The notes under the pieces: model-generated
The model's input: the letters and a program-made list of their open reading frames with translations, nothing else
Told to the model about the DNA's origin: nothing
The model's database searches: none
Translations under genes and position numbers: made by a program
NCBI GenBank assembly: GCA_016930155.1
Contig: JAFGHL010000093.1
Span: forward strand, 38,339-102,338
Length of the DNA: 64,000 bases
Reading direction: 5' to 3'
Source of the DNA: Dehalococcoidia bacterium
GTDB taxonomy: Bacteria; Chloroflexota; Dehalococcoidia; GIF9; UBA5629
Part shown: positions 3,849 through 17,449 of the stretch, one piece after another
Numbering within the stretch: the stretch's first letter is position 1
Layout of the letters: each line of letters begins with the position of its first letter

Positions 3849-3853
3849 ATGCG

Positions 3854-5239
3854 ATGATAGATATATTACAGGAACTCTGCAAGATCACCGATAAAGACTA
3901 CATATCCAACAATCAAGAGGAGCTCTACCTCTACGGGCGGGACCCGGGCTTGATGCCGCCTCATGAGCCTGATTATGTTGTCATGCCGTCAACGGTTGAT
4001 GAGATACAGGCCATAGTCAGACTGGCAAACAGAGAGAAAATTCCGATTATCCCCAAAGGCGGCGGCCTTTCTCTTACAGGACTGGTTATCCCGCAAAAAG
4101 GCGGTATCCTGCTGGACATGAAGCGGATGGGGAAAATACTGGAAGTAAACGAGTCGGCAGGATATGTGATAGTGGAAGGCGGTACCACGCACGGCGCATT
4201 GAAAAGCTACCTGTTAAAGAATTATCCGCATCTTCGTCACAGCATACCTGATTCTCCCCCGATAACAACAATCACAGCGAACGCGGTAATACACGGCCAG
4301 GGGCGCCTTACGCAGCAACACGGATTCAACTCCGACATGGTCTGCGGCCTGGAGGTGGTGCTGCCCACAGGGGAAAAATGCAAAATCGGCTCCTGCGCAG
4401 TCTCGACATACTGGTTCTCCAAGGGACCGCCTCTGCCTGACCTGAGCAGCCTGTTTTTCGGCTGGTTTGGCACCACCGGCATCATCACCAAGCTGGCGCT
4501 GAGACTCTATCCCTGCAAGAAGATTCGAGATGCCATGCTTTTCCTCACCGATGAGGCTGAACTGGTGCCCGAAATCATGCGCAAACTTGGCCGCACTGAA
4601 ATGGTAGAAGACCTGGTGGTGACCGCACAGCCGATACCGCTCAGGTTCAGGGGCAATTATTATATACTTTTCTATATAACAGGCGATACTGAAGAGGAAT
4701 TGGATTTCAAAAAGAAAATGGCCTGGCGTGCGCTATGGGAATACTTCGAAAGGAGGGAAGGCGGGTTTGTTAGCCTGCCCCCTGAAATGAAAGCGCCCAT
4801 GCTGGCCATGCCTTCAAAAGACACTACCAGGTTTGCGGATGTCAGTAAAGGCGGTGGATTTGAATACAGCGGCCCTATAGCCCCCCTGGAAAAGTATCCC
4901 GCATACGTTAAAAAGCTGGCTGAACTGGCTAATAAATACGACCTTTTCTATTCATCAGCCGCCCGTATGATCGACGGCGGGCACTGCATGATGTTTTCCT
5001 TCTCTTACACTTTTAACCGGGCTGACCCGGATACGATGAAAAGGGCCAAGCAGGCGCTTGATGAAGCCGCTGATTTTGCCCTGGAAAACGGCGGGGTTAT
5101 GTGGAAACCTAATATCGATGAACAACAAATGACCATGGCTAAAATGGATCCCGAAACACTCAATTTAATGATGAAGATTAAACATTTACTGGATCCCAAC
5201 GGCATTATGAATCCCGGTAACTGGGAGGTGTCCCGATGA
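3854..5239 (+). CDS. FAD-linked oxidase (GlcD / D-lactate dehydrogenase family)
   Basis: 461 aa. N-terminal FAD-binding PCMH-type pattern (VVMPSTVDEIQAIVRLANREKIPIIPKGGGLSLTG) and the C-terminal tail typical of the family (LLDPNGIMNPG). Confidence 0.85.
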   Translation: MIDILQELCKITDKDYISNNQEELYLYGRDPGLMPPHEPDYVVMPSTVDEIQAIVRLANREKIPIIPKGGGLSLTGLVIPQKGGILLDMKRMGKILEVNESAGYVIVEGGTTHGALKSYLLKNYPHLRHSIPDSPPITTITANAVIHGQGRLTQQHGFNSDMVCGLEVVLPTGEKCKIGSCAVSTYWFSKGPPLPDLSSLFFGWFGTTGIITKLALRLYPCKKIRDAMLFLTDEAELVPEIMRKLGRTEMVEDLVVTAQPIPLRFRGNYYILFYITGDTEEELDFKKKMAWRALWEYFERREGGFVSLPPEMKAPMLAMPSKDTTRFADVSKGGGFEYSGPIAPLEKYPAYVKKLAELANKYDLFYSSAARMIDGGHCMMFSFSYTFNRADPDTMKRAKQALDEAADFALENGGVMWKPNIDEQQMTMAKMDPETLNLMMKIKHLLDPNGIMNPGNWEVSR

Positions 5240-6393
5240 AGAAATACCAGGCCCAGATTCACAGGTGCTTCAGGTGCGGTTACTGCAAATTTCCCACTGA
5301 CTACTCAGCGATAAATTGCCCGTCATATAACAGGTTCAGGTTCGATACCTATTCCACGGGCGGCAGGTTGTGGCTGACACACGCTTGGTTGAAAGGCGAG
5401 CTGCCATGGTCGGAGCACCTTGCCGAGATACTCTACGCATGTACCAACTGCAATAACTGCAGCGAGCAGTGCCCGATGAAGTTTGCTCCCGACATCGTAG
5501 AATGGATCATCGGCGCCAGGAGCGATATGGTGGAGCAGGGGAAAATCCCCGCCAGGGTCAAGCGCTTCCTTGAAGCTGTTTACAACTATGGTAACCCGTT
5601 TAAAAACCTGCGGAATGAACGCGCCGCCTGGGCAAATGGCGCCAGGCTTTATGAGAAAGGCGACGATTTCCTGCTGTATATAGGCTGCCTTGGCTCCTAT
5701 GACGAAAATGGCCAGAAAATGGCCAGAAATCTGGTCAGCTTACTGGAAACGGCAGGAATATCCTTCGGTATACTCGGCAACGATGAGGAGTGCTGCGGGA
5801 ATGAAGTATATTCGTTGGGAGAGACCGAGTTATTCAACACGCTGGCAAAAAAGAATATCGATAAATTCAGGGAATTAGATATAAAAAAGGTTATCACGCT
5901 ATGCCCGCATGGTTACAACATTATGAAGAACCGCTACCAGGACATGGGTTATACCTTCGAGGTTTATCACTTTACACAGGTACTGGACAGCCTGCTAAGA
6001 GATAAGCTGCTCAAGCCGGAGGCGGGCAGGTTAAAAGTAACATACCATGATCCCTGTTTTCTGGGCAGGCACAATAAAGTTTATGATCCCCCTCGCAGTG
6101 CCCTGCGAAGCCTGAATGGAATCGATCTCATCGAGATGGGCAGAAATAAGGCCGATGCCTTTTGTTGTGGAGGCGGCAGCGGTAATTTTGTGACCGATTA
6201 CCTGGCCGGGGGACAGGACAGCCCGGCAAGGACGCGCATAAGAGAGGCTGCGCAGTCCGGGGCAGATATTCTGGCGCTGGCCTGTCCCGGATGCATGGTG
6301 ATGTTTCAGGATGCACTGAAGGCTGAAAACCTCGAAGGCAAGCTGCAGATAAAGGATATTGCCGCAATCATCAGCGAATCACTGGCTCATTAA
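5236..6393 (+). CDS. GlcF-like Fe-S subunit with two CCG domains
   Basis: CTNCNNCSEQCP, EECCGNE and AFCCGGGSG...CPGCMVMF. ATGA start/stop overlap with the flavoprotein gene, which suggests translational coupling. Confidence 0.85.
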   Translation: MKKYQAQIHRCFRCGYCKFPTDYSAINCPSYNRFRFDTYSTGGRLWLTHAWLKGELPWSEHLAEILYACTNCNNCSEQCPMKFAPDIVEWIIGARSDMVEQGKIPARVKRFLEAVYNYGNPFKNLRNERAAWANGARLYEKGDDFLLYIGCLGSYDENGQKMARNLVSLLETAGISFGILGNDEECCGNEVYSLGETELFNTLAKKNIDKFRELDIKKVITLCPHGYNIMKNRYQDMGYTFEVYHFTQVLDSLLRDKLLKPEAGRLKVTYHDPCFLGRHNKVYDPPRSALRSLNGIDLIEMGRNKADAFCCGGGSGNFVTDYLAGGQDSPARTRIREAAQSGADILALACPGCMVMFQDALKAENLEGKLQIKDIAAIISESLAH

Positions 6394-6453: not shown

Positions 6454-6681
6454 TTATTTCCTGATCGTGGAGATTTTAAGTAATTTATATAAGCCGCAAA
6501 ATCCGGTTATTCCTGTGATAAGTGCGATCAGGCCTAAAATGATCAGTACTATCATAGCCACCAATCCCCATGAACTCTGAAAATAGATTCCCAATCCGAT
6601 CAGGATAATTCCAAGTATTATCCTGATAACCCGGTCAACCGTGCCCTCATTCTTCTCCATAGCATCACCTTCCCTGCGCAA
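6454..6681 (-). CDS. DUF2892 (YgaP-like) small membrane protein
   Basis: 75 aa. Has VDRVIRIILGIILIGLGIY followed by a second TM helix ending CGLYKLL, the typical DUF2892 pattern. Confidence 0.7.
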   Translation of the reverse strand: MRREGDAMEKNEGTVDRVIRIILGIILIGLGIYFQSSWGLVAMIVLIILGLIALITGITGFCGLYKLLKISTIRK

Positions 6682-6726
6682 ATTCTACTATTGTCCGTAT
6701 GATTTTCAATTACAGAAGCAGGCTTT

Positions 6727-7023
6727 TCAAAACCGGCCCTGGTTGACTCTGGACCTGAGCCTCTCAATACGCCTATCGAGGCTATCTATTCTAAGCTTTA
6801 ATGCGTTAATCGACTGTGCCAAGTCTGAGCCTGAAACCGGCGCAAGTTCTGTTAAGGCTCCCCGGGGGCAGACATCGATACAGAGGCGGCAATGATTGCA
6901 TCGGTTATGGTCTATCTGAACCCCATCCCGGCTTAGAGAGATAGCTCCCGTCGAGCAGATCTGCTCACATAGCCCGCATCCCAGGCATAGGGATTTCCTG
7001 ACTTCGACTACTGTATTATTCAC
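6727..7023 (-). CDS. 2x[4Fe-4S] ferredoxin-domain protein with a C-terminal coiled-coil tail
   Basis: CLGCGLCEQIC and CNHCRLCIDVCP, then a heptad-like tail DLAQSINALKLRIDSLDRRIERLRSRV. Confidence 0.75.
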   Translation of the reverse strand: MNNTVVEVRKSLCLGCGLCEQICSTGAISLSRDGVQIDHNRCNHCRLCIDVCPRGALTELAPVSGSDLAQSINALKLRIDSLDRRIERLRSRVNQGRF

Positions 7024-7176
7024 TTTGGCTGATTACTCCTTGAACATGTTTTACCTCTGGTATGGCCAGGGCCTCAACCCGATGTAGCATGTCTCGATTT
7101 GTGATATGACATGATCTGACCTGAACATTTTCACCTGTATAAATAGTTATTTTAATAGAGCGCGAGTCACGTTACT

Positions 7177-7911
7177 TCATCTATTTGCCTGTTTCAGCAT
7201 TGTGAGCTGTTGAATTCCTTTGATCTGGCGGTAGGTAGCCCCTTCGCCCACACAGCGAAGAGCTAACTCCGAATCGATCACCCTGGTGCCGGATATGGCA
7301 TTAACACCGTAATCAAACAGAACGGGCGATAAGGGAGAAGTGTCACCAAGTATAACCACATAGGCTTTTCGACTGCACAGTTGTAAAAGCAGCTCCACCG
7401 TGTGATTGGTGAAGGCAGTGCCGGTAATGGCTACAACGTCAGCTTGCGGTATAATTTCTGCCGCCTGATCCTCTGTAAGATCACCCTCACCCGGATTTTT
7501 CTCAATAACCCAGAGCTCTTTAACAATTCCGCGCAGTTTAGGTATAAAAGGGAAGTGCCCTACAATAGCTACTCTTTTAGCTCTCCCTTCCTCAGCAATA
7601 ATATCTCGGGCATTGATGTTCAGGCAATTGTCCTCATCTATTTGCATGAGGGAGTTAATGGCAGCCATACCGATAGCCGCCTCAAGAATGCTTTGAGAAT
7701 GGGCCATCAACACCAGCTCTGATGCGCTCTTCGTCAACAACAGACCGCTGTCTTTTACAGAACCGTGTTCCTGTCGAAGCGCATCACGTGGCAGCGTCGC
7801 TGCCAGTCCGCAGTTCCTGGTAAGCACGGCGGTGTGAAACAAGCCCTGGCGTATATCTTTTACGCTCGCATCCGTATTCAAACCGGATATCAGCTCTTCA
7901 AGGATTTTCAT
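7177..7911 (-). CDS. DUF4213/DUF364 protein (putative metal-chelating Rossmann-like protein)
   Basis: 244 aa. The N-terminal DIRQGLFHTAVLTRNCGLA and central VAIVGHFPFIP patterns match my memory of DUF364 family proteins. Confidence 0.65.
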   Translation of the reverse strand: MKILEELISGLNTDASVKDIRQGLFHTAVLTRNCGLAATLPRDALRQEHGSVKDSGLLLTKSASELVLMAHSQSILEAAIGMAAINSLMQIDEDNCLNINARDIIAEEGRAKRVAIVGHFPFIPKLRGIVKELWVIEKNPGEGDLTEDQAAEIIPQADVVAITGTAFTNHTVELLLQLCSRKAYVVILGDTSPLSPVLFDYGVNAISGTRVIDSELALRCVGEGATYRQIKGIQQLTMLKQANR

Positions 7912-8063
7912 TAAGTTCTACTCCCCGCACCGGACACTATTCAGTATTTTTACCTTCTCCACTTATCCTGGCTCAGACCTGTTCATGATATTGAATAAAC
8001 CAATATGTGGCGCGAAAGATGCCCACCTATGGACAGTGTGGTTTCCTGCAGTATACCCCTGCT

Positions 8064-8091
8064 AATGTAATGAGCATATGCTCATTACATT
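8064..8091. promoter_or_regulatory. Perfect 28-nt palindrome AATGTAATGAGCATATGCTCATTACATT (operator O1)
   Basis: Read directly; each half is the exact reverse complement of the other. Shares the 16-nt core ATGAGCATATGCTCAT with the palindrome at 10150-10169. Confidence 0.8.
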
Positions 8092-8117
8092 GTAATGCCG
8101 GCAGATCAGCCTGTCAA
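8089..8117 (-). promoter_or_regulatory. Sigma70-type promoter TTGACA-17 nt-TACAAT reading toward the DUF364 gene
   Basis: On the minus strand the -35 TTGACA lies at 8117-8112, the spacer is 17 nt and the -10 TACAAT lies at 8094-8089. The -10 overlaps the outer arm of palindrome O1. Confidence 0.6.
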
Positions 8118-8178
8118 AAACGCTGCGATTTGTACCGCGGGAACCAAGTACCTGATTAATTGATGCCACACCATATTG

Positions 8179-8460
8179 TTATTCTCCGATATGTACTCGT
8201 CCCCAAATAGCCAGTGACCTTGCCAGCGAGTCGATCTCCTCCGGCTTTTTCGCCTTAGCCGCGGAAAAACAAAACCTGAAATAGTTATTTAATACCAGTG
8301 CTCCGACATTTTCAATTGCGGAACGTACGGCAGCCAACTGAGTTAATATGCTCTCACAATCACGGCCATCCTCGATCATTTTCTGCAAGCCGCGTGACTG
8401 CCCCTCGATTTTTTTGAGCCGATTAATTAACTCATCCCTGGATATCTCTTTTCTAACCAT
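8179..8460 (-). CDS. CsoR/RcnR-family (DUF156) metal- or persulfide-sensing repressor, of the CstR-like C...C type
   Basis: 93 aa. LINRLKKIEGQSRGLQKMIEDGRDCESILTQLAAVRSAIENV is the family signature. Cysteines at positions 35 and 64, with Tyr rather than His at position 60. Confidence 0.8.
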   Translation of the reverse strand: MVRKEISRDELINRLKKIEGQSRGLQKMIEDGRDCESILTQLAAVRSAIENVGALVLNNYFRFCFSAAKAKKPEEIDSLARSLAIWGRVHIGE

Positions 8461-8489
8461 AAAAACTCCGCCTTATCCTAAATACGTTT

Positions 8490-8518
8490 TTGCTTACTAT
8501 ACCCCGGTAGGGTATAAT
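8490..8518 (+). promoter_or_regulatory. Promoter TTGCTT-17 nt-TATAAT for the oxidoreductase gene
   Basis: -35 at 8490-8495 and -10 at 8513-8518, with a spacer of exactly 17 nt. Confidence 0.55.
8498..8516. promoter_or_regulatory. CsoR-type operator, inverted repeat TATACCC-5 nt-GGGTATA
   Basis: 7-nt perfect arms in the divergent csoR-like/oxidoreductase intergenic region, overlapping the spacer and the -10 of the promoter at 8490-8518. Confidence 0.65.
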
Positions 8519-8571
8519 TCCCGAAGCCCATTTATATCACTATTATATTATGAGAAGGAGCTAACTATAAA

Positions 8572-9924
8572 ATGGAGAGACACGAACTGGTTATAGTGGG
8601 AGGCAGCGCCGGTGGTATTCAGGCATCGATTTGTGCTCAGCGGCATCACGGCCTGAAAGACATCCTGGTTATACGCATTGAAGAAAAAACAATGGTTCCC
8701 TGCGGCATCCCCTATATCTATGGAACTTTAGGCGCTGTAGAGAAAAATATCATGCCCGCTTCCCTCCTCGGAGAAGCAACGCTGAAAATAGGAGAGGTCG
8801 TATCTATTGATCGCAAAGCAAAGACAGTTTCGCTTAAAGATGGTGAAAAAATAGGCTATGACAAGTTGGTTTTGGCCACTGGGTCTGATCCTATGAAACC
8901 GCCTATACCGGGCATAGATAAAAAGAATGTCTGGTTTGCCTGGAAAAATACCGACTACCTTGGAGACCTTGCACAGGCAATTGAAAATATTGGTGATATT
9001 GTTGTTATCGGCGGCGGGTTCATAGGGTTGGAATTTGCTGACGAGTGCCGCAAAAAAGGACATAAGATAACCGTGGTAGAAATGCTGGAGCATTGCTTGC
9101 AGCAGGTATGTAACTCCGACCTGTGTATCCGGGCAGAGGAAGCGCTGAAAGGAACCGGCGTGAATATTATTACTTCCAACGGAGTGAAATCGATTAACGG
9201 CAAGAGTAAAGTTGAGTCGGTAACTTTACAAAACGGAGATACTGTCAAATGCGACCTGGTGATCAACGGCATCGGTGTGATTCCCAACGTAAAACTGGCA
9301 AAAGACGCAGGGCTGGAAATCGGCCCAACGGGTAGTATCAAAGTTGATGAGTTCCAAAGAACCACTGATACCAATATCTTTGCGGTCGGCGACTGCGCCG
9401 AAAAATACTCTTTCTTCAATGGATTGCCCGTGCCTATCAGATTAGCTTCTGTAGCGACGCGAGAGGCCAAAATAGCCGCAGCCAACCTTTATCAGCCGCA
9501 ATGGCGCAATATTGGAACGATCGGCGTATTTTCAACAGTTGTAGCCAATACAGCCATGGCCATGGCAGGCTTAACCGATACCAAAGCCCGCGAGTTAGGC
9601 TATGATGTTATTGTCGGTGAAGCCCAGGCTGCTTCCAAACATCCCGGCACCATGCCCGATGCGCATCCTATGAAAGTACGTCTGGCCTTTGACCGCAGGT
9701 CAGGTAAAATACTGGGGGGCTGCGCCTGCTGTACTCAAAGCGTCGGTGAAGTAGTGAATTTAATCGCATCTGCTATAGTTAACGAAATGACCATGGAACA
9801 AATTGCCATGTTCCCCATGGGAACCCATCCATGGCTCACCGCTTCACCTCTGGTCTATCAATTTACCGATGCTGCCAGCAACGCAATTCACAATGTAAAA
9901 AATTCAGCGCGGGTACAAACATAA
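8572..9924 (+). CDS. Pyridine nucleotide-disulfide oxidoreductase of the CoA-disulfide reductase / NADH oxidase type (single active-site Cys)
   Basis: VIVGGSAGG FAD motif, the single redox Cys in TMVPCGIPY, a second dinucleotide motif VVIGGGFIGLE, and GDCA. AGGAG RBS. Confidence 0.8.
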   Translation: MERHELVIVGGSAGGIQASICAQRHHGLKDILVIRIEEKTMVPCGIPYIYGTLGAVEKNIMPASLLGEATLKIGEVVSIDRKAKTVSLKDGEKIGYDKLVLATGSDPMKPPIPGIDKKNVWFAWKNTDYLGDLAQAIENIGDIVVIGGGFIGLEFADECRKKGHKITVVEMLEHCLQQVCNSDLCIRAEEALKGTGVNIITSNGVKSINGKSKVESVTLQNGDTVKCDLVINGIGVIPNVKLAKDAGLEIGPTGSIKVDEFQRTTDTNIFAVGDCAEKYSFFNGLPVPIRLASVATREAKIAAANLYQPQWRNIGTIGVFSTVVANTAMAMAGLTDTKARELGYDVIVGEAQAASKHPGTMPDAHPMKVRLAFDRRSGKILGGCACCTQSVGEVVNLIASAIVNEMTMEQIAMFPMGTHPWLTASPLVYQFTDAASNAIHNVKNSARVQT

Positions 9925-10118
9925 TCGTTATTGCCATTAACATTTTGTGTGTCCGTCCTGATCATATGTCTGATTAAGGCAAGTAAAATCGCTGGTTTGC
10001 CGGTATTCTGATTTGTCCATGGCAGGCATCTCTTTATGCACTGCCTTCAGCAAATCAAGAATGCCCCTTGCCTGTCCGACTCTATATTCAAATCTGCTTG
10101 AAACACATTATCATCGAT

Positions 10119-10147
10119 TTGACACGGCTATTAAGTCGATCTATACT
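10119..10147 (+). promoter_or_regulatory. Sigma70-type promoter TTGACA-17 nt-TATACT for the DUF134 operon
   Basis: -35 at 10119-10124, a 17-nt spacer, and -10 at 10142-10147. Confidence 0.65.
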
Positions 10148-10149
10148 CA

Positions 10150-10169
10150 TTATGAGCATATGCTCATAA
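10150..10169. promoter_or_regulatory. Perfect 20-nt palindrome TTATGAGCATATGCTCATAA (operator O2)
   Basis: Read directly. Begins 3 nt after the -10 hexamer and ends 20 nt before the DUF134 start codon. Confidence 0.8.
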
Positions 10170-10188
10170 TAAAGAGGATAAAACTGAT

Positions 10189-10662
10189 ATGCCGAGGCCG
10201 ATAATATGCCGCCGCGTTACCTTCCTTCCGGGAGCTACTTACTTTAAACCGGCGGGAATACCCCTGCAATTCCTGCAAGAGGTGCGCCTGTCGCTTGAAG
10301 AAGCTGAGGCCATCCGGCTCAAGGACATTGAAAACATGGATCAGGAGCAGGCGTCACTTCACATGAACGTATCACGGCCTACCTACCAGCGGATATTGGA
10401 ATCGGCCAGGAAAAAGTTAGCTGATGCACTGTTGCATAGCAAGGCCATCAGGATCGAGGGCGGCAATGTCGAAATTATACCGCAGCGTTACGTTTGCGAA
10501 AACGGCCACCAGTGGGATGTGCCTCTTGAACAGGCCATGGCGGAACCGCTGCAGGCATGCCCTGTTTGCAATACCACCGCACCAGGTTTGCTGACAGAGA
10601 TTAATTTAACCCGAGGGCGCGGAAGAGGGGGCAGGTGTCATCGAGGAGGACCAAGTCGCTGA
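10189..10662 (+). CDS. DUF134 (UPF0251) predicted DNA-binding protein with a C-terminal Zn-ribbon-like segment and an RG-rich tail
   Basis: The N-terminus MPRPIICRRVTFLPGATYFKPAGIPL and LSLEEAEAIRLKDIENMDQEQASLHMNVSRPTYQRIL are the classic DUF134 pattern. CENGH...CPVC follows, and the tail is RGRGRGGRCHRGG. Confidence 0.8.
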   Translation: MPRPIICRRVTFLPGATYFKPAGIPLQFLQEVRLSLEEAEAIRLKDIENMDQEQASLHMNVSRPTYQRILESARKKLADALLHSKAIRIEGGNVEIIPQRYVCENGHQWDVPLEQAMAEPLQACPVCNTTAPGLLTEINLTRGRGRGGRCHRGGPSR

Positions 10663-10706
10663 AATGGTCGGTCAGCGTGTATTGAGAATGCAAAAGGAGG
10701 TGAACA

Positions 10707-10973
10707 ATGCCCTACGGAAGAGGCTACGGAATGAGAGGAGGTTTCAGAGGAGCCTATGCTGCGTGGCCGTATATCGGCCGCGGGCGTGGAGGCCTTCCCA
10801 GGTGCGGGTATTACTTCGATTACCCGACTTACTATATGCCCGCTTATCAGGCTGAAGCGCCCGCTACCGCAAATTATGATCTGGGCGACCTGAAAAACAC
10901 CGTGGCCACCTTGAAAGAAAGGCTGGCACGGATGCAGGCAACGATCAGCGAGATAGAACGGCAGAGGTCTTAA
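10707..10973 (+). CDS. DUF5320-like small RG/Y-rich protein with a C-terminal coiled coil
   Basis: MPYGRGYGMRGGFRG...GGLPRCGYY with the tail LKNTVATLKERLARMQATISEIERQ. AGGAGG RBS. Confidence 0.7.
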   Translation: MPYGRGYGMRGGFRGAYAAWPYIGRGRGGLPRCGYYFDYPTYYMPAYQAEAPATANYDLGDLKNTVATLKERLARMQATISEIERQRS

Positions 10974-11036
10974 CCAGCCCAAATATTTTCACTTCCCACT
11001 ATTTCCTGAAAAAATAAAACCAAAGGAGGGTTTAAA

Positions 11037-11297
11037 ATGCCAGGATTTGATGGAACCGGGCCAAGGGGTCTTGGCCCCATGACAGGTGGAGGAAGGGGTT
11101 TTTGCGTAACACCGGCAGGCAATGTCGGCGCCTACGGGCGCGGCTTTGCATCCCGCGGCTACGGACCGGCTTATGGGCCGGTTTACCAGGCGCCTGCCAA
11201 TCAGCAGGAAATCGATCAGATTAGAAACGATTTTAACCAGTTGTTAAATGAGCTTCAAAATCTGGAGGCAAGGATCAATCAAATGGAGAAACGTTAA
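11037..11297 (+). CDS. DUF5320 family protein
   Basis: Canonical N-terminus MPGFDGTGPRGLGPMTGGGRGFC and a coiled-coil tail LLNELQNLEARINQMEK. AGGAGG RBS. Confidence 0.8.
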   Translation: MPGFDGTGPRGLGPMTGGGRGFCVTPAGNVGAYGRGFASRGYGPAYGPVYQAPANQQEIDQIRNDFNQLLNELQNLEARINQMEKR

Positions 11298-11345
11298 CCC
11301 GGGTATTGCCGGACGGGCTAAATAGACAGATAAAGGGGGTAAAAC

Positions 11346-11711
11346 ATGAAATTAGCAGTGACCGCCACCGGACCCGGTCTTGATGCCGATGTCGATCCGC
11401 GCTTCGGCAGGTGCAAATACTTCATTTTCGTTAACCCGGATACGCTGGAGTTTAAAGCAGTGGATAACACACCCGCCGGTGGAGGCGCCGGGATCGCCGC
11501 AGGCCAGCTTTTGGCATCACATGGGGCACAGGTATTGCTCACCGGTGATTGTGGTCCCAATGCCTATCAGGTCCTATCGGCGGCCAATATTCAGGTGATA
11601 ACCGGCATATCCGGCAAGGTTATGGACGCGATTAATGCGTACAAAGCCGGCCAATTCAAGGCCATCAGCCAGCCCAGCGTCCAGCCTCACCACGGTTTAA
11701 CTACTAAATAA
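11346..11711 (+). CDS. NifX/NifB-C-terminal-like (dinitrogenase FeMo-cofactor binding domain) protein
   Basis: MKLAVTATG...VDPRFGRCKYFIFVN...GAQVLLTGDCGPNAYQVL is typical of COG1433 proteins. Confidence 0.8.
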   Translation: MKLAVTATGPGLDADVDPRFGRCKYFIFVNPDTLEFKAVDNTPAGGGAGIAAGQLLASHGAQVLLTGDCGPNAYQVLSAANIQVITGISGKVMDAINAYKAGQFKAISQPSVQPHHGLTTK

Positions 11712-11746
11712 TACAGAGCATTGACTATTAATAAAGGAGGTTTATC

Positions 11747-11992
11747 ATGCCCAGAGGAGATATGACAGGACCGCCAGCCGGAGGCGGCAGAGGTGGAGGT
11801 CGCGGCGCCGGCCAGGGTGGAGGAGGCAGGGGAATGAGAAGCGGCGGCAGGATGGGTGGCAACCGTCCCGGAGCAGGGCCGGGCGGAGATTGCGTTTGCC
11901 CGAGCTGCGGCGCAAGAGCGCCGCACCAGGTAGGCCAGCCCTGCTACAGCATTAAATGCCCTAAATGCGGCGCCGCCATGGCGAGAGCATAG
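11747..11992 (+). CDS. DUF5320-like G/R-rich protein with a C-terminal Zn ribbon instead of a coiled coil
   Basis: MPRGDMTGPPAGGGRGGGRGAGQGGGGRG..., then CVCPSCG...CPKCG. AGGAGG RBS. Confidence 0.7.
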   Translation: MPRGDMTGPPAGGGRGGGRGAGQGGGGRGMRSGGRMGGNRPGAGPGGDCVCPSCGARAPHQVGQPCYSIKCPKCGAAMARA

Positions 11993-12835
11993 ATGATTAT
12001 ATCGGTTGCCAGCGGCAAGGGGGGAACGGGCAAGACACTGGTTGCCACCAGCCTTGCCCTTTCCCTCGGCAATACGTGCAGGGTTCAGTTGCTCGATTGT
12101 GACGTCGAGGAGCCCAACGACCACCTGTTTATCAGGCCTGTTATTACCGACCGCGAGACGGTCTGCATACCCGTGCCGAAGGTTGACTACAACAGGTGTA
12201 CTTTTTGCGGCGACTGCGCACGAATCTGCGCCTATAAGGCCATCGCCGTAGTGCCCAAAAGCGTTCTCGTGTTTGATCAGCTCTGCCACGGCTGCGGCGC
12301 CTGCAGCTACCTCTGCCCCGAAAAGGCTATCACGGAAGAGGGGCACGAAATCGGAGTGGTTGAGTCCGGCCGGGCCAATGGCATAGCGTTCGTCCAGGGC
12401 AGGTTGACCGTCGGCGAGGCCATGGCTACGCCGGTAATACGACGGGTCAAGACCAGGATCGATCACGCCGCAACAGCCATACTGGATGTGTCACCGGGCA
12501 CCTCCTGCCCCGTGGTAGAGGCTGTGCGGGACAGCGATTACTGCCTGCTCGTTACCGAACCCACCCCCTTTGGTCTGCACGACCTTGAGCTGGCGGTGCT
12601 AACGGTCAAACAATTGGGCATTCCCTGCGGCGTGATCGTCAACCGCGCTGTACCGGGAGAAGATATGGTGCAGTCTTACTGCTCCCGTGAAAATATTCCC
12701 GTTCTGCTTGAGATACCACTGGACAGGGATATCGCTCGCCTTTATTCGAATGGACAAACTCTGGCAGAGGGCATGCCTCAGTGGCAGGACAGGTTTAAAG
12801 ACGTTTACACCAGTATTACAAGGAGCCGTACATGA
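11993..12835 (+). CDS. MinD/ParA-superfamily P-loop ATPase with an inserted 2x[4Fe-4S] ferredoxin domain (COG1149-like)
   Basis: Deviant Walker A SGKGGTGKT. CTFCGDCARIC and CHGCGACSYLCP. Confidence 0.85.
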   Translation: MIISVASGKGGTGKTLVATSLALSLGNTCRVQLLDCDVEEPNDHLFIRPVITDRETVCIPVPKVDYNRCTFCGDCARICAYKAIAVVPKSVLVFDQLCHGCGACSYLCPEKAITEEGHEIGVVESGRANGIAFVQGRLTVGEAMATPVIRRVKTRIDHAATAILDVSPGTSCPVVEAVRDSDYCLLVTEPTPFGLHDLELAVLTVKQLGIPCGVIVNRAVPGEDMVQSYCSRENIPVLLEIPLDRDIARLYSNGQTLAEGMPQWQDRFKDVYTSITRSRT

Positions 12836-13689
12836 AAGAAGTCGTTGTACTTAGCGGCAAAGGCGGAACTGGGAAGACAAGCATTACCGGCTGTTTCGCA
12901 GTCCTGGCGCGCAATAAAGTGCTGGCGGATTGCGATGTGGACGCGGCCGACCTGCATCTGTTACTCAACCCTGAGGTCAGGCGCACGGAGGAGTTCTGGA
13001 GCGGCCAAAGCGCCTGTATCGACGAAAATATCTGCAACGGCTGCGGCCTGTGCGAGGAGATATGCCGTTTCGATGCTATCAGGAACCTGAAAGTGGATCC
13101 CACCGCCTGTGAGGGTTGCGGCTTTTGCTCCCGCATCTGCCCGGTCGAGGCTATCAGCATGCTGAACAACCTTGCAGGACACTGGTATATCTCCGATACA
13201 AAGTACGGATCCCTGGTGCATGCGCGACTGGGCATAGCACAGGAGAACTCGGGCAAGCTGGTGGCGCTGGTCCGGCAGCAGGCCAGGCAGCTTGCAGAAT
13301 CAGCACAGCACACATCTATTATCACAGACGGCCCCCCGGGCATCGGCTGCCCGGTGATATCTTCACTGTCCGGCGCCGACCTGGCGCTGCTGGTGACTGA
13401 GCCGACCGTATCAGGCATCCACGACCTGGAGCGTGTCATCGATGTCTGCCGGCATTTTCAAGTGCCGGCCACAGTATGCGTTAATAAATATGACATCAAT
13501 GAGGAAAAAGCCTCTGAGATCAAGCGGTATTGCACGAACAACGGCATCCAGGTTGCCGGGGAGATACCCTTTGATACCAGTGTAAACCAGGCGGTTACAC
13601 TCGGCCTGCCGCTGGTGGAGTATAATGATGGGCCGGCGTCCCGCGCCGTCAAACAGCTCTGGAATAATTTGGAAAAGTTTTTTCAATAA
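12832..13689 (+). CDS. MinD/ParA-superfamily P-loop ATPase with an inserted ferredoxin domain (paralog)
   Basis: SGKGGTGKT, CNGCGLCEEIC and CEGCGFCSRICP. 4-nt overlap with the previous gene. Confidence 0.85.
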   Translation: MKEVVVLSGKGGTGKTSITGCFAVLARNKVLADCDVDAADLHLLLNPEVRRTEEFWSGQSACIDENICNGCGLCEEICRFDAIRNLKVDPTACEGCGFCSRICPVEAISMLNNLAGHWYISDTKYGSLVHARLGIAQENSGKLVALVRQQARQLAESAQHTSIITDGPPGIGCPVISSLSGADLALLVTEPTVSGIHDLERVIDVCRHFQVPATVCVNKYDINEEKASEIKRYCTNNGIQVAGEIPFDTSVNQAVTLGLPLVEYNDGPASRAVKQLWNNLEKFFQ

Positions 13690-13710
13690 ATTAATTTAGG
13701 GGAGCCATAT

Positions 13711-13956
13711 ATGCCTATTTATGACTATGCCTGCGCCGCCTGCGGTACCCGCTTTGAGCATATGCAATCGGGCGCGGAAATCAAAGGCCTTACCTGCCCC
13801 TCCTGCGGAAGCGGTTCCGTGAGCAAACTCATTTCCATCCCCGGTTTAATTAAAGCAGGCAGTGAACCGCGCGGGGGAAAGACTTGCTGCGGCCGGGAGG
13901 AACGCTGTGATAAGCCCCCATGCTCCAACGAGGGCAGTTGCTATCGCGGCCTTTAA
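13711..13956 (+). CDS. FmdB-family zinc-ribbon protein with a Cys-rich tail
   Basis: MPIYDYACAACGTRFE...CPSCGS is the FmdB signature. The tail is TCCGREERCDKPPCS. Confidence 0.8.
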   Translation: MPIYDYACAACGTRFEHMQSGAEIKGLTCPSCGSGSVSKLISIPGLIKAGSEPRGGKTCCGREERCDKPPCSNEGSCYRGL

Positions 13957-14052
13957 CCGTCTCACCTGAACAACAGTCTTTCATGATGATAGAATGCTGC
14001 TCTTTTATATTAAAGGCGCATAGCGATATCAAATAAACTTAGGAGATATATT

Positions 14053-14391
14053 ATGAAATTTGCCATACCGGTAAACAACGGCGTTCTATCGGCGCACTTC
14101 GGCCATTGCGAGCAATTTGCGCTGATCGAAGTTGATGAAAAAAATAAGAGCATACTTCACAAGGAATTGGTTGCCTCACCAGGGCATCAGCCGGGATTTT
14201 TGCCTCCGTGGCTGGCCAAGCAAGGTGTACAGGTGGTCATCGCCGGCGGCATGGGCGGCAGCGCCATATCTCTCTTTCAGCAAAACGGCATCAACGTACT
14301 GCTGGGAGCGCCGGCTATCGATCCTGAAAAAGTCGTGATCGACTATCTAAATGGCAACCTGGTGTCTGGCGACAACCGTTGCGACCATTAG
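14053..14391 (+). CDS. NifX/NifB-C-terminal-like cofactor-binding domain protein (paralog)
   Basis: MKFAIPV...SAHFGHCEQFALIEVD...GVQVVIAGGMG. Confidence 0.8.
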   Translation: MKFAIPVNNGVLSAHFGHCEQFALIEVDEKNKSILHKELVASPGHQPGFLPPWLAKQGVQVVIAGGMGGSAISLFQQNGINVLLGAPAIDPEKVVIDYLNGNLVSGDNRCDH

Positions 14392-14443
14392 TCTCGCTGC
14401 CAAAGAAGCACGCCCCTGAAAAAAATTAAACAGAAGGCATACA

Positions 14444-14896
14444 ATGCGCGTCAGCAGGGAAGAATATCAGCAGATACTTGAATCAGAGCTACACAAAACT
14501 TGCAGCGAGAAGACTGTAGACCATGCTCTAAAGCCAAGGAACATGGGTAGTATAGAGGTCGCCAGCGGTTACGCTTATATAACAGGCCCCTGTGGAGATA
14601 CCATGGAGATCTGGCTGAGCGTTGATAACCAGATCATAGAGCAAGCCACTTTCATAACTGATGGCTGCATAACCACCATAGCTGCAGGAAGCATGATCAC
14701 GGAGATGGCTAAAGGCAAGCCGGTGGAAGAAGCCATGCAGATCGGCCAGCAGGATATATTAAAGGCTTTAGACGGCCTGCCGGAGGAAAGCGAGCATTGT
14801 GCCCTGCTGGCGGCCAACACGCTCAAAGAAGCAATCCTGGATTATTATGAGTACAGCCGCGATAAGTGGAAACGCAATTATAAGAAACAATGGTAG
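14444..14896 (+). CDS. IscU/NifU-N-terminal-like Fe-S scaffold protein
   Basis: Three scaffold Cys in the conserved contexts GPCGDTM, DGCITT and EHCALLA. Confidence 0.8.
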   Translation: MRVSREEYQQILESELHKTCSEKTVDHALKPRNMGSIEVASGYAYITGPCGDTMEIWLSVDNQIIEQATFITDGCITTIAAGSMITEMAKGKPVEEAMQIGQQDILKALDGLPEESEHCALLAANTLKEAILDYYEYSRDKWKRNYKKQW

Positions 14897-14913
14897 CGTT
14901 TGATGTGTCGATT

Positions 14914-15038
14914 ATGTACGATCCGGTTCCATCATGGCGTTTGGGAAGGTCCCGCGGTATTGACATGGCGTACACCCGCTAAAAACCTGCTCCTTCGATT
15001 GCTTTTACTTCTCAGGTGATGCCCGGTCAAATCGTTAA
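14914..15038 (+). pseudogene. Relic of the 5' end of a radical SAM gene (frameshifted, with a degraded CxxxCxxC motif)
   Basis: MYDPVPSWRLGRSRGID at 14914-14964 matches the conserved GPVPSRRLGRSLGI N-terminus of a radical SAM family. A stop follows at 14980. A shifted frame then reads KTCSFDCFYFSG, where the third Cys of the motif is replaced by Phe, with a stop at 15036. Confidence 0.5.
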
Positions 15039-15177
15039 ATTCATCAGTGCGATCTCAAATAAGGAGGGATTTTTCCGGCTTCAAGCACGTTATTGAGCTC
15101 TACGAATCTGCAAAGGCGGTTGCACTACCACTAAATCAGCAGCAAACGAAACGCCGCAGACCGGAAGCGTATCAAAT

Positions 15178-15627
15178 ATGGACGGCATAAATCAGACATT
15201 TAATCGCAGGGAAATCCGCATTAACGACCTTTCTGCGTTTGTCTGCTTTTCACACATAGAGTACAATTCGATAATGCCGATGTCCATCCTGAGCGACTCT
15301 ATCGGCAAAATTAAGCAGGTGACGGTAACTGAAATGGAAAGGATCAACCTTGAGCCCAGTTATACTTCTAACGAGGTGCCGGGCAAGTGCTTGAAGTGCC
15401 TGGCGGAGAAAGAGCTGAACAACTGCCTTTTCGCGTTGCTCAGTGAGCAATCCAGCGATGAGGAACTGCAACAACGCTATGAGGCGCTGCTCTCACTGCT
15501 GCAATCTCCCGACTTTGAAATGTTGCGGAGCAAGGTTGAGAGACTGCTGTCCGAAGGCAAGCAGGTCAGGGTGAAGGTAGACCATGATGATGCAGGCAAC
15601 CTGCAGTATAAACTGATTATTGATTGA
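15178..15627 (+). CDS. Hypothetical protein whose C-terminal ~65 aa are paralogous to ORF 17177-17449 (start codon uncertain)
   Basis: ORF track. The C-terminus LLSEQSSDEELQQRYEALLSLLQSPDFEMLRSKVERLLSEGKQVRVKV aligns with MLSDAAGNEQLNQRLELLTIVLKEIDFKHLRLESEKYMVQGKKVKVIF. No clear RBS at any of the candidate ATGs. Confidence 0.45.
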   Translation: MDGINQTFNRREIRINDLSAFVCFSHIEYNSIMPMSILSDSIGKIKQVTVTEMERINLEPSYTSNEVPGKCLKCLAEKELNNCLFALLSEQSSDEELQQRYEALLSLLQSPDFEMLRSKVERLLSEGKQVRVKVDHDDAGNLQYKLIID

Positions 15628-15736
15628 AACAGGGCTAATAGAGTGAGAATGCATTCGTAGTATTTGCGGGGAGTAAGCTATCCAACCCACTAGACTGCTT
15701 ACATTGAACAAAATCATACATTGAGGAGAAAACGAT

Positions 15737-16753
15737 ATGATAACTGCGGAACAAGTAAAGGACAGGCTCGATGAGGTCATCATTCCTCACGTTATACGTA
15801 GCCTGACTTTAATGAATCTGATACGTGATATCACAATAACTGATGACTCGGTAAAAATCGCTCTGGCTTCAGCCGGACTGGATGAATATTCGCAGAAATG
15901 GATTACAGAAAAAATCGAAGAATCTTTGAAAGGCCTGCACGATATAAAAAACATCAGCATCGACTATATTGATTCCAAACCCCTTGATTTAAATAAAGTC
16001 GGCAGTGTAATAGCCGTAATGAGTGGCAAAGGCGGTGTAGGCAAGTCGCTGGTCAGCAGCATCACAGCCGTCGCACTGAGAAGGGAGGGATTTGAAGTCG
16101 GGATACTCGATGCTGATATTACCGGCGCCAGTATACCAAAGATGTTCGGTATAACGGAGCGGCCTGGAGGAAACGAGAGCGGCATATTGCCGGTAACGTC
16201 CAAATCAGGTATTGAGATCATGTCGATTAATCTTCTATTGCCCAGCGAAGATGAAGCTGTCATATGGCGCGGTCCGCTTATAGGCAAGGCCATCACGCAA
16301 TTCTGGGAAGAAGTTCTCTGGGGCCGTCTGGACTATTTAATTGTCGACCTGCCACCCGGCACTGCCGATGCCCCGCTTACCGTAATGCAATCACTGCCGA
16401 TCTCGGGTGTTATAGTCGTGTTTACGCCGCAGGATTTGACGGCTATGATCGTGAGGAAGGCGGTTAAGATGGCCAGGCAGATGAATAAAAAGATACTGGG
16501 TGTCGTCGAGAATATGAGCTACCTTTACGTCAAGGAGATCGATAAGAAAATTGAGCTTTTCGGAAAAAGCAGGGGAGAAGAAATGGCAACAGAGGCGGGG
16601 GCGCCGTTGCTGGGGAAAATACCGGTTGATCCCGATTTGGCCGCCCTTTGCGACGCCGGGCATATCGAGCAATACCAATCCGATCTCGTTGAGCAAATAG
16701 GCAAGTCGCTTCTGTCGTCACTCTCCTTGAAATCTTCCGAAACCGGGAGATAA
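15737..16753 (+). CDS. apbC: Mrp/NBP35 (ApbC) Fe-S cluster carrier ATPase with an N-terminal DUF59 domain
   Basis: VMSGKGGVGKS Walker A, DLPPGT, and the Mrp signature region VVENMSY. The N-terminal ~80 aa are DUF59-like. Confidence 0.85.
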   Translation: MITAEQVKDRLDEVIIPHVIRSLTLMNLIRDITITDDSVKIALASAGLDEYSQKWITEKIEESLKGLHDIKNISIDYIDSKPLDLNKVGSVIAVMSGKGGVGKSLVSSITAVALRREGFEVGILDADITGASIPKMFGITERPGGNESGILPVTSKSGIEIMSINLLLPSEDEAVIWRGPLIGKAITQFWEEVLWGRLDYLIVDLPPGTADAPLTVMQSLPISGVIVVFTPQDLTAMIVRKAVKMARQMNKKILGVVENMSYLYVKEIDKKIELFGKSRGEEMATEAGAPLLGKIPVDPDLAALCDAGHIEQYQSDLVEQIGKSLLSSLSLKSSETGR

Positions 16754-16766
16754 CACGACGGCAAAG

Positions 16767-17186
16767 ATGTCACAACAGGAAAATACCGACAAGAGTGATT
16801 GGCCTCCCGTTTTTTCGGCCGACGCCATTGAGCATATGGAACGCCCGCGAAATGTAGGCAGTTTAGCTCGTCCCGACGGCGTGGCCATTATCACCGGATC
16901 ATGTGGTGATACCATGGAATTCTGGCTCCGCATCAATAACGGTAGTATCAGCGATATCAAGTTCTGGACGGATGGCTGCGAGACCACTGTAGCAGCAGGC
17001 AGCATAACCACACTACTGGCAAAAGATAAGCCTGTTGGCGAAGCATTCAAGATAAATCAATATGACATCTTAGACGCTCTGGGCGGGCTGCCCGGGGGCA
17101 GTGAACACTGCGCAGCGCTGGCTGCCAAAACACTAAAAGCTGCGCTGTCAGATTACCTGGAGTTTAAAAACGATCCATGGCAATGA
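16767..17186 (+). CDS. IscU/NifU-N-terminal-like Fe-S scaffold protein (paralog)
   Basis: GSCGDTM, DGCETT and EHCAALA. Confidence 0.8.
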   Translation: MSQQENTDKSDWPPVFSADAIEHMERPRNVGSLARPDGVAIITGSCGDTMEFWLRINNGSISDIKFWTDGCETTVAAGSITTLLAKDKPVGEAFKINQYDILDALGGLPGGSEHCAALAAKTLKAALSDYLEFKNDPWQ

Positions 17187-17449
17187 TTGAATTGATACCC
17201 AGCCTGACACATTGTATTCATACTATCACCAAAAGGGAATATGAGGATACCCTCCGACAGATGTTATCAGACGCAGCCGGGAACGAGCAACTTAATCAAA
17301 GGCTGGAATTGCTCACAATCGTATTGAAAGAAATCGATTTCAAACATCTGCGTCTCGAGTCTGAAAAATACATGGTACAGGGCAAAAAGGTCAAAGTTAT
17401 TTTCTTCCTGGAAAACAATACTCCCGGATACGAAATACAGGTTCTATAA
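17177..17449 (+). CDS. Hypothetical 90-aa protein, paralog of the C-terminus of ORF 15178-15627
   Basis: Overlaps the IscU-like gene by 10 nt. Similarity to the other small ORF is listed above. Confidence 0.55.
   Translation: MAMIELIPSLTHCIHTITKREYEDTLRQMLSDAAGNEQLNQRLELLTIVLKEIDFKHLRLESEKYMVQGKKVKVIFFLENNTPGYEIQVL

Follow-up and report, generated by a model that had tools for sequence, protein, structure and literature searches.

An expanded orp locus in a Dehalococcoidia bacterium, probably concerned with the handling of Fe-S or other metal-sulfide clusters

Results

Gene content and limits of the cluster

The window analyzed here is a 64-kb stretch of DNA from the metagenome-assembled genome of a Dehalococcoidia bacterium (contig JAFGHL010000093.1), and the subject of this work is an 11-kb gene cluster at positions 6454-17449 of that window. 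An earlier note, made from the sequence alone, had taken the cluster for a candidate novel system of uncharacterized iron-sulfur (Fe-S) or other metallocluster genes. As judged from its protein families, the core of the cluster is instead the known ORP (Orange Protein) system, with members of the Orp3/Orp4, Orp8 and Orp9/MrpORP kinds, in an expanded Dehalococcoidia version. The ORP complex of Desulfovibrio has been under study since 2011 (PMC6345978, PMC8359166), and the claim to novelty was thus overstated. What is new here is the variant architecture and a testable pairing of the DUF134 protein with an operator, not a new kind of system.

The open reading frame (ORF) list, together with Pfam and NCBIfam profile scans of the proteins of the window, from which the domain calls below are taken, recovers all 19 genes that the note had named, intact, at their coordinates and with essentially the domains assigned to them. 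The genes and regulatory features are as follows.

6454-6681, minus strand: YgaP-like_TM/DUF2892 small membrane protein (PF11127, 76 bits)
6727-7023, minus strand: 2x[4Fe-4S] ferredoxin with a helical C-terminal tail (Fer4 families; eight Cys as two CX2CX2CX3C)
7177-7911, minus strand: DUF4213+DUF364 protein, "putative heavy-metal chelation" (Pfam, 129 and 61 bits)
8070-8085: operator 1, exact palindrome ATGAGCATATGCTCAT, in the promoter region of the DUF364 operon
8089-8117, minus strand: sigma-70-like promoter TTGACA-17-TACAAT (11/12 match), driving the DUF364-ferredoxin operon
8179-8460, minus strand: CsoR-family repressor of the CstR-like type (PF02583, 89 bits; C35, C64, Tyr60)
8499-8515: CsoR-type operator-like palindrome ATACCCCGGTAGGGTAT, in the divergent intergenic region between the csoR-like and CoADR-like genes
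8572-9924, plus strand: CoADR/NADH-oxidase-like flavoprotein disulfide reductase (Pyr_redox_2, 206 bits)
9991-10004: terminator-like hairpin after the CoADR-like gene
10119-10147, plus strand: sigma-70-like promoter TTGACA-17-TATACT (11/12 match) of the DUF134-orp operon
10152-10167: operator 2, exact palindrome ATGAGCATATGCTCAT, in the promoter region of the DUF134 operon
10189-10662, plus strand: DUF134 protein, predicted autoregulated regulator (PF02001, 76.6 bits; Sigma70_r4_2, E 5.5e-5)
10707-10973, plus strand: G/R/Y-rich small protein with a C-terminal helix, DUF5320-like (PF17253, 24.2 bits; cut-off 27)
11037-11297, plus strand: DUF5320 small protein with a G/R-rich N terminus and a coiled-coil-like C terminus (PF17253, 57.6 bits)
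11346-11711, plus strand: homologue of Orange Protein (Orp8), consisting of one NifX-like (IPR003731) domain (PF02579, 80 bits)
11747-11992, plus strand: six-Cys Gly/Arg-rich small protein with an MPRGDxTGP N terminus (CxCPxCG...H...PC...CPKCG)
11993-12835, plus strand: ATPase 1, Orp3/Orp4-type, MinD family (CbiA/MinD), with inserted 2x[4Fe-4S]
12832-13689, plus strand: ATPase 2, Orp3/Orp4-type, with two inserted Fer4 motifs (4-nt overlap with ATPase 1)
13711-13956, plus strand: FmdB-type CxxC...CxxC zinc ribbon with a Cys-rich tail (PF09723, 59.8 bits; TIGR02605; nine Cys)
14053-14391, plus strand: stand-alone Di-Nase (Nitro_FeMo-Co, NifX-like) protein (NF041136 positions 265-365, 125.7 bits)
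14444-14896, plus strand: IscU/NifU_N-type scaffold 1 (PF01592, 102.6 bits; CGD, DGC and HC all present)
14905-15178, plus strand: radical-SAM gene remnant (pseudogene), from tblastn of an intact orthologue against the window
15334-15627, plus strand: AF_2379-family (PF27306) small protein 1 (83% identical to its orthologue in the closest relative)
15737-16753, plus strand: DUF59 + Mrp/NBP35 ATPase without CXXC (PF10609, 295 bits)
16767-17186, plus strand: IscU/NifU_N-type scaffold 2 (53% identical to scaffold 1)
17177-17449, plus strand: AF_2379-family (PF27306) small protein 2 (10-nt overlap with scaffold 2)

Some of the earlier labels are better revised. The protein at 11037-11297 is a DUF5320 protein, but that at 10707-10973, to which the note had given the same name, scores below the family cut-off. 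The protein at 11747-11992, described as a DUF5320 zinc-ribbon protein, has no significant Pfam match and has only its N-terminal MPRGDxTGP in common with DUF5320, although some of its homologues carry that annotation. The two unnamed small ORFs of the note are present but are paralogues within PF27306, and the first most likely starts at 15334, not 15178 (a GTG at 15319 is a possible alternative).

The genes on either side are unrelated, comprising HdrD-like CCG proteins and a flavin adenine dinucleotide (FAD) oxidase upstream and TetR, Na+/H+ exchanger and trehalose genes downstream, and the limits drawn for the cluster are therefore right. The DUF2892 gene stands at the boundary, and its membership in the system is doubtful. 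It has its own promoter-like site at 6709-6682, and in the closest syntenic relative, a locus that we call L081 (positions 1-20267, JGI 3300029288) with the same flanking genes, its homologue adjoins a CCG-domain gene, though the ferredoxin and DUF364 genes are missing there. The ferredoxin gene itself lies downstream of DUF364 on the same strand. The genes of the plus-strand set are separated mostly by short gaps, with the exception of a stretch of about 440 bp that holds the radical-SAM remnant, and no plus-strand terminator-like site was found within 10189-17449.

Positions 10001-14000, which hold the orp core, have a G+C content of 53-57%, and the flanks at 6-10 kb and 14-20 kb have 46-49%. 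The higher value fits either lateral acquisition or the Gly/Arg/Pro-rich coding content of these genes.

Correspondence with the ORP complex of Desulfovibrio

The ORP complex of D. vulgaris contains the paralogous ATPases Orp3 and Orp4, with two [4Fe-4S] motifs each, as well as the small Fe-S protein Orp5, the Orange Protein Orp8 and MrpORP (Orp9); Orp3, Orp4 and Orp8 co-purify, MrpORP binds a [3Fe-4S] cluster through its Di-Nase domain, and clusters are transferred in vitro from MrpORP to Orp3, Orp4 and Orp8 (PMC6345978). This published biochemistry links such genes to Fe-S trafficking and to that extent supports the proposal of the earlier note. The system has been described as specific to anaerobes and as possibly derived from archaea by horizontal transfer (PMC6345978, PMC8359166).

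The Dehalococcoidia cluster resembles this system in its two MinD-type ATPases, which are paralogues and have a pair of [4Fe-4S] ferredoxin motifs each, its single-domain NifX-fold Orange Protein homologue, its Mrp/NBP35 ATPase and Di-Nase domain with HFGHCE and CDH, its restriction to anaerobes and the presence of a predicted dedicated regulator within the cluster. It also encodes small Cys-rich proteins that are candidates for the Orp5 kind. The best PDB match of the 11346-11711 protein is the D. gigas Orange Protein (2WFB, E 1.5e-20). The NCBIfam model of MrpORP, NF041136 (cut-off 450), is matched in two separate genes, its positions 2-236 by the Mrp protein at 311 bits and its positions 265-365 by the Di-Nase protein, both pieces thus falling under the cut-off. 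The Di-Nase protein has an SAHFGHCE motif and a terminal RCDH; in MrpORP, the Di-Nase motifs CXHFGHCE and CDH have been proposed as the ligands of the [3Fe-4S] cluster (PMC6345978).

The two systems differ in organization and content. The Desulfovibrio orp genes form two divergent sigma-54 operons under the activator OrpR (PMC6345978), whereas the genes here appear to form one long co-directional operon, with DUF134 and a sigma-70-type promoter and operator in place of OrpR, IHF and sigma-54; Pfam and NCBIfam scans found no gene for an enhancer-binding protein of the OrpR type in the cluster. MrpORP, a single polypeptide there, is split into two genes here, and its Mrp part has an N-terminal DUF59 domain and has lost the CXXC. 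Added here are two proteins each of the IscU-like and AF_2379-family kinds, three that are G/R-rich and one FmdB ribbon, along with a DUF364-ferredoxin operon in the same predicted regulon. For comparison, we take the D. vulgaris Hildenborough genes to be DVU2103 (Orp3), DVU2104 (Orp4), DVU2105 (Orp5), DVU2106 (OrpR), DVU2108 (Orp8) and DVU2109 (Orp9). The orp operons of D. alaskensis G20 belong to the same reference system, and Dde_3197 is their Orp5, a small Cys-rich protein that binds [2Fe-2S].

Because the core matches the ORP complex, the COG1149 ATPases and the NifX-like proteins belong to a named and partly characterized system. A literature search on DUF134/UPF0251, DUF5320, COG1149 and AF_2379 found nothing functional. 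The COG1149 type, one of those to which the note had given no defined role, corresponds to Orp3/Orp4. As the note had also said, there is no cysteine desulfurase, IscA or SufBCD, as judged by profile scans of the cluster and of the long ORFs of the window. From this it had suggested a self-contained, possibly sulfide-dependent pathway, a conclusion for which 64 kb of a genome is too little.

Conservation across loci

The locus scan took one genome per species, was anchored on the ATPase and gave 80 loci with identities of 48-67%. ORFs were assigned by single-sequence phmmer and counted when they shared the strand of the anchor and were no more than 6 kb away from it. Iterated hidden Markov models had run the profiles of Orp3, Orp4 and Mrp together and let those of the G/R-rich DUF5320 proteins drift, and the assignments made with them were discarded. 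The 80 loci span more than 15 bacterial and archaeal phyla. Bacterial loci come from Dehalococcoidia, Desulfobacterota, Omnitrophota, Ignavibacteria, Planctomycetota, Clostridia/Syntrophomonadaceae, Leptospirales, WOR-3, Zixibacteria and Aminicenantes, and archaeal loci from Bathyarchaeia, Methanocellaceae, Methanohalophilus, Methanophagales, Thorarchaeota, Altiarchaeota and Thermoplasmatota. The numbers of loci with each family are given below and are lower bounds, because many contigs are short.

Second ATPase: 79 of 80
Orange Protein type (NifX-like): about 71
Di-Nase type: 45
Mrp: 38
Six-Cys G/R protein: 34
FmdB: 29
IscU: 28
DUF5320: 28
DUF134: 21
DUF364: 11
CoADR-like: 4

The neighborhood is a conserved core with a recurring accessory pool. 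Its conservation outside this genome, on which the earlier proposal had depended, is borne out, with the same families on the same strand in loci of other genomes. The accessories vary between close relatives, so the 11-kb "supercluster" of the note is better seen as a mosaic around the core than as a fixed pathway. L081 illustrates this. It lacks the DUF364 and ferredoxin genes as well as the CsoR and CoADR genes. In it a peroxiredoxin gene follows DUF134, the radical-SAM gene is intact, there are three NifX-like genes, and an MBL-fold hydrolase gene takes the position of the second IscU gene.

Such variation, and a CsoR/CoADR unit with its own operator and terminator-like site, are what would be expected if independent operons with no common function had come together by chance. 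For the core, this is largely refuted by the recurrence of the same families on one strand in 80 loci from two domains of life and by an operator common to two operons and recurrent in related loci. Fusions between components (MrpORP, NifX-like with a Cys-rich protein, AF_2379 with radical SAM) also speak against it, and we consider chance juxtaposition highly improbable.

A shared operator and the DUF134 protein

The exact 16-bp palindrome ATGAGCATATGCTCAT has only two copies in the 64 kb. Operator 1 follows the -10 box of the DUF364 promoter (minus strand) at a distance of 3 nt, and operator 2 lies 4 nt past the -10 box of the plus-strand promoter and 22 nt ahead of the DUF134 ATG. No further copy was found inside the cluster, even with a degenerate pattern and two mismatches. 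The related loci (1.1 Mb) contain 8 sites with at most one mismatch and 11 with at most two, against analytic chance expectations of about 0.01 and 0.3, and about 22 of the 28 sites with at most three mismatches (a hand count) lie upstream of a DUF134 or orp gene at a distance of no more than 150 bp. Sites occur across Ignavibacteria (L024, L053), Zixibacteria (L040) and Desulfobacterota (L014, L017, L025, L031, L056, L075), and an archaeal variant, GTGTGCATATGCACAT, occurs in L055. Several variants are symmetric and compensatory: GG/CC in L081 (ATGGGCATATGCCCAT, at 679-694), GA/TC in L009 (ATGGACATATGTCCAT) and AA/TT in L056 (ATGAACATATGTTCAA). In several phyla the consensus, ATGrrCATATGyyCAT, comes immediately after the -10 box in DUF134 and orp operons, and it is the predicted DUF134 operator.

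DUF134 proteins have a sigma-70 region-4-like helix-turn-helix, to which the bacterial forms add a C-terminal Cys/His ribbon and a G/R tail. From the placement of the sites we infer that DUF134 would be the autoregulated regulator of the cluster, standing in for OrpR, which agrees with the earlier view that the module has a regulator of its own. Because the same palindrome follows both -10 boxes and recurs across phyla, the DUF134 operon and the DUF364-ferredoxin operon probably form one regulon. Elsewhere, DUF364 directly follows DUF134 in the same orientation (L001 and L007), and in L012 the two ORF calls overlap. No riboswitch or other RNA element was matched in Rfam, either in the DUF364 leader of about 160 nt (7912-8069) or elsewhere in the window.

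The CsoR-like/CoADR-like pair

Between the two operons lie the CsoR-like repressor and the CoADR-like reductase. The note was right to call the repressor CstR-like: its residues, read directly, include C35 and C64, and Tyr60 replaces the copper-ligand His. The palindrome ATACCCCGGTAGGGTAT is the only exact match to the CsoR-type operator pattern in the window. The reductase has a single redox cysteine, Cys44, and no rhodanese domain, and it is not an equivalog of CoADR (TIGR03385, 240.6 against a cut-off of 578.8). The pair thus resembles CstR/CoA-persulfide reductase modules in the CsoR fold with two Cys and no His, in the GC-rich palindrome in the divergent promoter, and in the adjoining single-Cys pyridine-nucleotide disulfide reductase. 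It differs from them in the absence of a rhodanese domain and of cstA, cstB and sqr and in scores far under the CoADR equivalog cut-offs. The CsoR-like protein is, by its residues, a candidate persulfide sensor.

The pair, which the note had listed with the other genes of the module, does not belong to the core. In view of its own operator, its terminator-like site and its absence from the closest syntenic relative, it would seem to be an insertion under regulation of its own, related to the core in theme through thiol/persulfide redox. Three Desulfobacterota loci (L017, L019 and L039) do have CoADR-like genes directly beside orp genes.

A CsoR-family regulator next to the cluster bears on a proposal in which the system handles Mo/W-Cu thiometallates, either sequestering thiomolybdate and Cu in sulfidic habitats or feeding Mo/W cofactor enzymes. 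The Orange Protein of D. gigas and D. alaskensis binds [S2MoS2CuS2MoS2]3- (work cited in PMC6345978), and a role for molybdopterin enzymes was proposed by the authors of a study of A. fulgidus (PMC3949148). The best NCBIfam match of the L081 radical-SAM protein is, moreover, a tungsten-cofactor oxidoreductase maturase. That match is far under its cut-off (44.9 against 380 bits), however, the CsoR-like protein here has no copper-ligand His and is missing from L081, and neither the cluster nor the window contains Mo/W transport or molybdopterin genes. We consider thiometallate handling very unlikely.

The Orp3/Orp4-type ATPases

The two ATPases are 31% identical, and their eight ferredoxin cysteines are invariant in 82 orthologues of ATPase 1 and 78 of ATPase 2. 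Further cysteines outside the ferredoxin insert are kept in different phyla. C36 (in DCDVEEPN, the switch I region) and C172 (in PGxxCP, switch II) of ATPase 1 are kept in 81 of 82 orthologues, and C173 of ATPase 2 in all 78. A model of the ATPase core (predicted local distance difference test (pLDDT) 87) is closest by fold to MinD, ApbC, NifH, Cfd1 and ATPase-type HypB, with MinD the best. In several such ATPases the dimer interface is under nucleotide control and holds a metal or cluster, and by analogy the extra cysteines may form an ATP-gated site between subunits. No solved structure with the ferredoxin insert was found; the searches returned no full-length relative by sequence and only generic SIMIBI ATPases by fold.

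An analogy can also be drawn with NifH and the NifX, NafY and NifB-NifX proteins, which likewise combine a SIMIBI-class dimeric ATPase with switch-region cysteines and NifX-fold cluster carriers, and NifH is one of the proteins closest in fold to the modeled ATPase core. In contrast to the nitrogenase system, there is no NifDK or NifEN here, and the ferredoxin insert is unique to the Orp3/Orp4 type; in contrast to the NifB/NifEN pathway of FeMo-co, there is only a degraded, generic radical-SAM gene and no intact NifB. No nif genes were found in the window.

That the ATPase core is structurally closest to MinD fits a second proposal, in which the MinD-family ATPases (Orp3/Orp4 type and Mrp) position the complex at a pole or septum, with redox sensing as the sole task of the clusters. 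Desulfovibrio orp and OrpR mutants have morphological defects, and MrpORP-GFP localizes to one pole (PMC6345978, PMC8359166). But the authors themselves call the link to division hypothetical (PMC8359166). The neighbors here are genes for Fe-S scaffolds and carriers (two IscU, Mrp, two NifX-like), not division genes, and no gene for MinC, MinE or an FtsZ relative was noticed among the loci summarized. A primary role in positioning therefore seems to us decidedly unlikely.

Mrp, IscU scaffolds and AF_2379-family proteins

The Mrp protein has the deviant Walker A motif GKGGVGKS and, like many bacterial and plant homologues, an N-terminal DUF59 domain, which with its PF10609 match place it with Mrp/NBP35/ApbC and Nbp35-Cfd1. 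It lacks, however, a defining feature of these carriers, the CXXC that ligates the bridging [4Fe-4S] cluster. The whole protein has a single cysteine, C305, and ENMSYLYVKEIDKKIELFG stands at the usual CXXC position. This loss is common to 10 Mrp orthologues of the Dehalococcoidia type (in L001-L013), whereas CXXC is kept in 30 Mrp homologues of other lineages and in a second, canonical Mrp of L008. Because the replacement sequence is conserved, the CXXC-less Mrp is a functional variant rather than a product of decay, and it probably acts as the ATPase partner of the neighboring IscU and Di-Nase proteins.

Both IscU-like proteins have GxCGD, DGC and EHC, with ligand cysteines C50, C75 and C119 in the first and C46, C71 and C115 in the second, and both score below the NCBIfam equivalog cut-off (120.9 and 102.1 against 187.9 for TIGR03419). 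In this locus and its closest relatives, each IscU-like gene is followed by a gene for an AF_2379-family small protein. The two small proteins are paralogues with 34% identity (E 8e-13) from a small family, PF27306, which has 236 representatives at E <= 1e-3 among 1.84 billion. An AlphaFold model (pLDDT 92) has a beta-alpha3-beta2 arrangement with no significant match in the PDB (best E 0.3, template modeling score 0.3). By its name and gene number, the namesake presumably lies between the A. fulgidus NifX and CbiA genes AF2378 and AF2380. In one protein, P0213 (331 aa), residues 4-90 form an AF_2379-family domain and residues 124-258 a radical-SAM domain, a fusion that connects PF27306 with a radical-SAM enzyme. 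In A. fulgidus, the expression of AF2378-AF2380 is constitutive and high (PMC3949148).

The radical-SAM remnant at 14905-15178 lies between the genes for scaffold 1 and the first AF_2379-family protein. Of the orthologue that is intact in L081 (6348-7121), it has retained residues ~1-35 and 205-257 and nothing else, and it accounts for the ~440-bp gap and for the spurious N-terminal extension of the ORF at 15178. Reading the L081 radical-SAM and NifX-like genes as a split NifB was rejected, the matches being weak and generic and nifB matching the NifX-like part only.

Small G/R-rich and Cys-rich proteins

The six-Cys G/R protein (11747-11992) has at least 1,888 homologous clusters, nearly all annotated as hypothetical, and its gene is usually directly upstream of that for the first ATPase. 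In two loci (L067 9370-9984 and L074 509-1072), the six-Cys ribbon is fused through a G/R-rich linker to a NifX-like domain, a layout like that of IssA. On Cys content only, this protein (six Cys) and the FmdB protein at 13711-13956 (nine Cys) could be Orp5-type small Cys-rich proteins, and 11747-11992 is, as a conjecture, a candidate counterpart of Orp5. The C terminus of the ferredoxin showed no significant similarity to the DUF5320 helix when the two were compared.

IssA of Pyrococcus furiosus is the basis of a third alternative. Its IPR003731 domain binds Fe and S, and its cationic Gly-rich tail, with Gly, Arg and aromatic residues, has been proposed to bind and wrap anionic thioferrate (PMC5524996). 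By extension, the NifX-fold and G/R/Y-rich proteins here could wrap a thioferrate-like (FeS2-)n or FeS polymer for storage or detoxification, which the ATPases and IscU/Mrp would mobilize. The window encodes NifX-fold proteins in an Fe/S context and three separate G/R-rich proteins, the two elements being fused in L067 and L074; CoADR-like genes adjoin orp genes in L017, L019 and L039, and the high constitutive expression of the homologues AF2378-AF2380 in A. fulgidus (PMC3949148) would also suit a storage role. But the IssA layout, with IPR003731 and a long tail in one protein, does not occur here. The NifX-like proteins of the window are short (121 and 112 aa) and tail-less, the G/R-rich segments are separate small proteins, two of them with Cys-rich ribbons, and ATPases and scaffolds stand alongside. 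Purified Orange Protein, moreover, holds a small Mo-Cu cluster and Di-Nase a [3Fe-4S] cluster, not a polymer (PMC6345978). Nothing here tells storage from trafficking, and we regard storage as unlikely.

Other features of the window

Three further gene groups were observed in the window. Positions 163-6393 hold four consecutive HdrD-like CCG-domain Fe-S proteins with a GlcD-like FAD oxidase embedded among them, possibly a dehydrogenase module of the lactate/glycolate type in which the CCG subunits have multiplied. On the minus strand, positions 26440-30388 hold the gene of a LarC-type nickel-insertion protein beside two others. One of these encodes 636 aa with an AIR-carboxylase (LarB-like) domain at the C terminus, and the other is an ORF of 277 aa that has no annotation. 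The group probably serves the nickel-pincer cofactor and would include a LarB fusion of unusual length. Positions 37398-47306 encode a siroheme-dependent (Ahb) heme route, with two radical-SAM proteins, an NirDL-like siroheme decarboxylase, a precorrin-2 dehydrogenase-like protein, HemA, HemC, CobA-HemD, HemB and HemL.

Discussion

The cluster is probably an expanded orp locus with a general role in the handling of Fe-S or other metal-sulfide clusters. Of the functions that could fall within or beside such a role, we favor trafficking or remodelling of clusters over the rivals of storage, positioning and thiometallate handling. A series of steps can be proposed on this basis. A DUF134 dimer would bind ATGrrCATATGyyCAT and repress or gate both operons, a task that in Desulfovibrio belongs to OrpR, a sigma-54 activator that contains Fe-S. 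The IscU-like proteins would assemble simple clusters, which the Mrp ATPase, devoid of the CXXC cysteines, and the Di-Nase domain, both encoded in the longer of the two operons, would pass to an Orp3/Orp4 heterodimer. Using ATP-dependent movements of switch I and switch II, where the extra cysteines lie, and electrons from its ferredoxin inserts, the heterodimer would load, remodel or release a cluster on the NifX-fold Orange Protein for some client. The cationic G/R-rich small proteins could stabilize an anionic sulfide cluster or polymer, and the CsoR-like/CoADR-like pair could be a thiol/persulfide module that was inserted between them and is under regulation of its own.

Several points weigh against this scheme. 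First, accessory content differs even among loci as close as this one and L081. Second, we infer the binding of DUF134 to the palindrome solely from position and co-occurrence. Third, the Mrp protein here cannot hold the canonical bridging cluster, which makes a carrier role for it an assumption. Fourth, purified Orange Protein carries a Mo-Cu cluster, not an Fe-S cluster (work cited in PMC6345978). Finally, the authors of the Desulfovibrio work favor a direct or indirect link of the ORP complex to cell division (PMC8359166).

A more ambitious reading, which we put forward only tentatively, joins the regulatory and biochemical proposals. DUF134 would be the ancestral regulator of the ORP system, common to bacteria and, in divergent form, to archaea, binding ATGrrCATATGyyCAT and possibly sensing Fe-S or redox state through its Cys/His ribbon. 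The Dehalococcoidia variant would be a desulfurase-independent, sulfide-fed line of Fe-S assembly and delivery, in which the Mrp without cluster ligands, IscU, the free Di-Nase and their AF_2379 partners would charge the Orp3/Orp4/Orange Protein machine. If this were true, DUF134, DUF5320, PF27306 and the COG1149 ATPases would all gain functions together.

Strict anaerobes have a very large complement of Fe-S and complex metal-sulfide cofactors, and the ways in which they make and distribute it are poorly understood; many of them lack parts of ISC or SUF. Candidates specific to anaerobes are few. The ORP complex is one, and 15 years of work on it have concerned a single genus. The same ORP core is found here in more than 15 phyla, with DUF134, DUF5320, AF_2379, DUF364, FmdB, IscU and Mrp as recurring companions. 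The natural Mrp variant without cluster ligands separates an ATPase role from a carrier role, and the conserved operator, in tying DUF134 to the ORP system, offers a handle on the signal to which the system would respond and on its full regulon.

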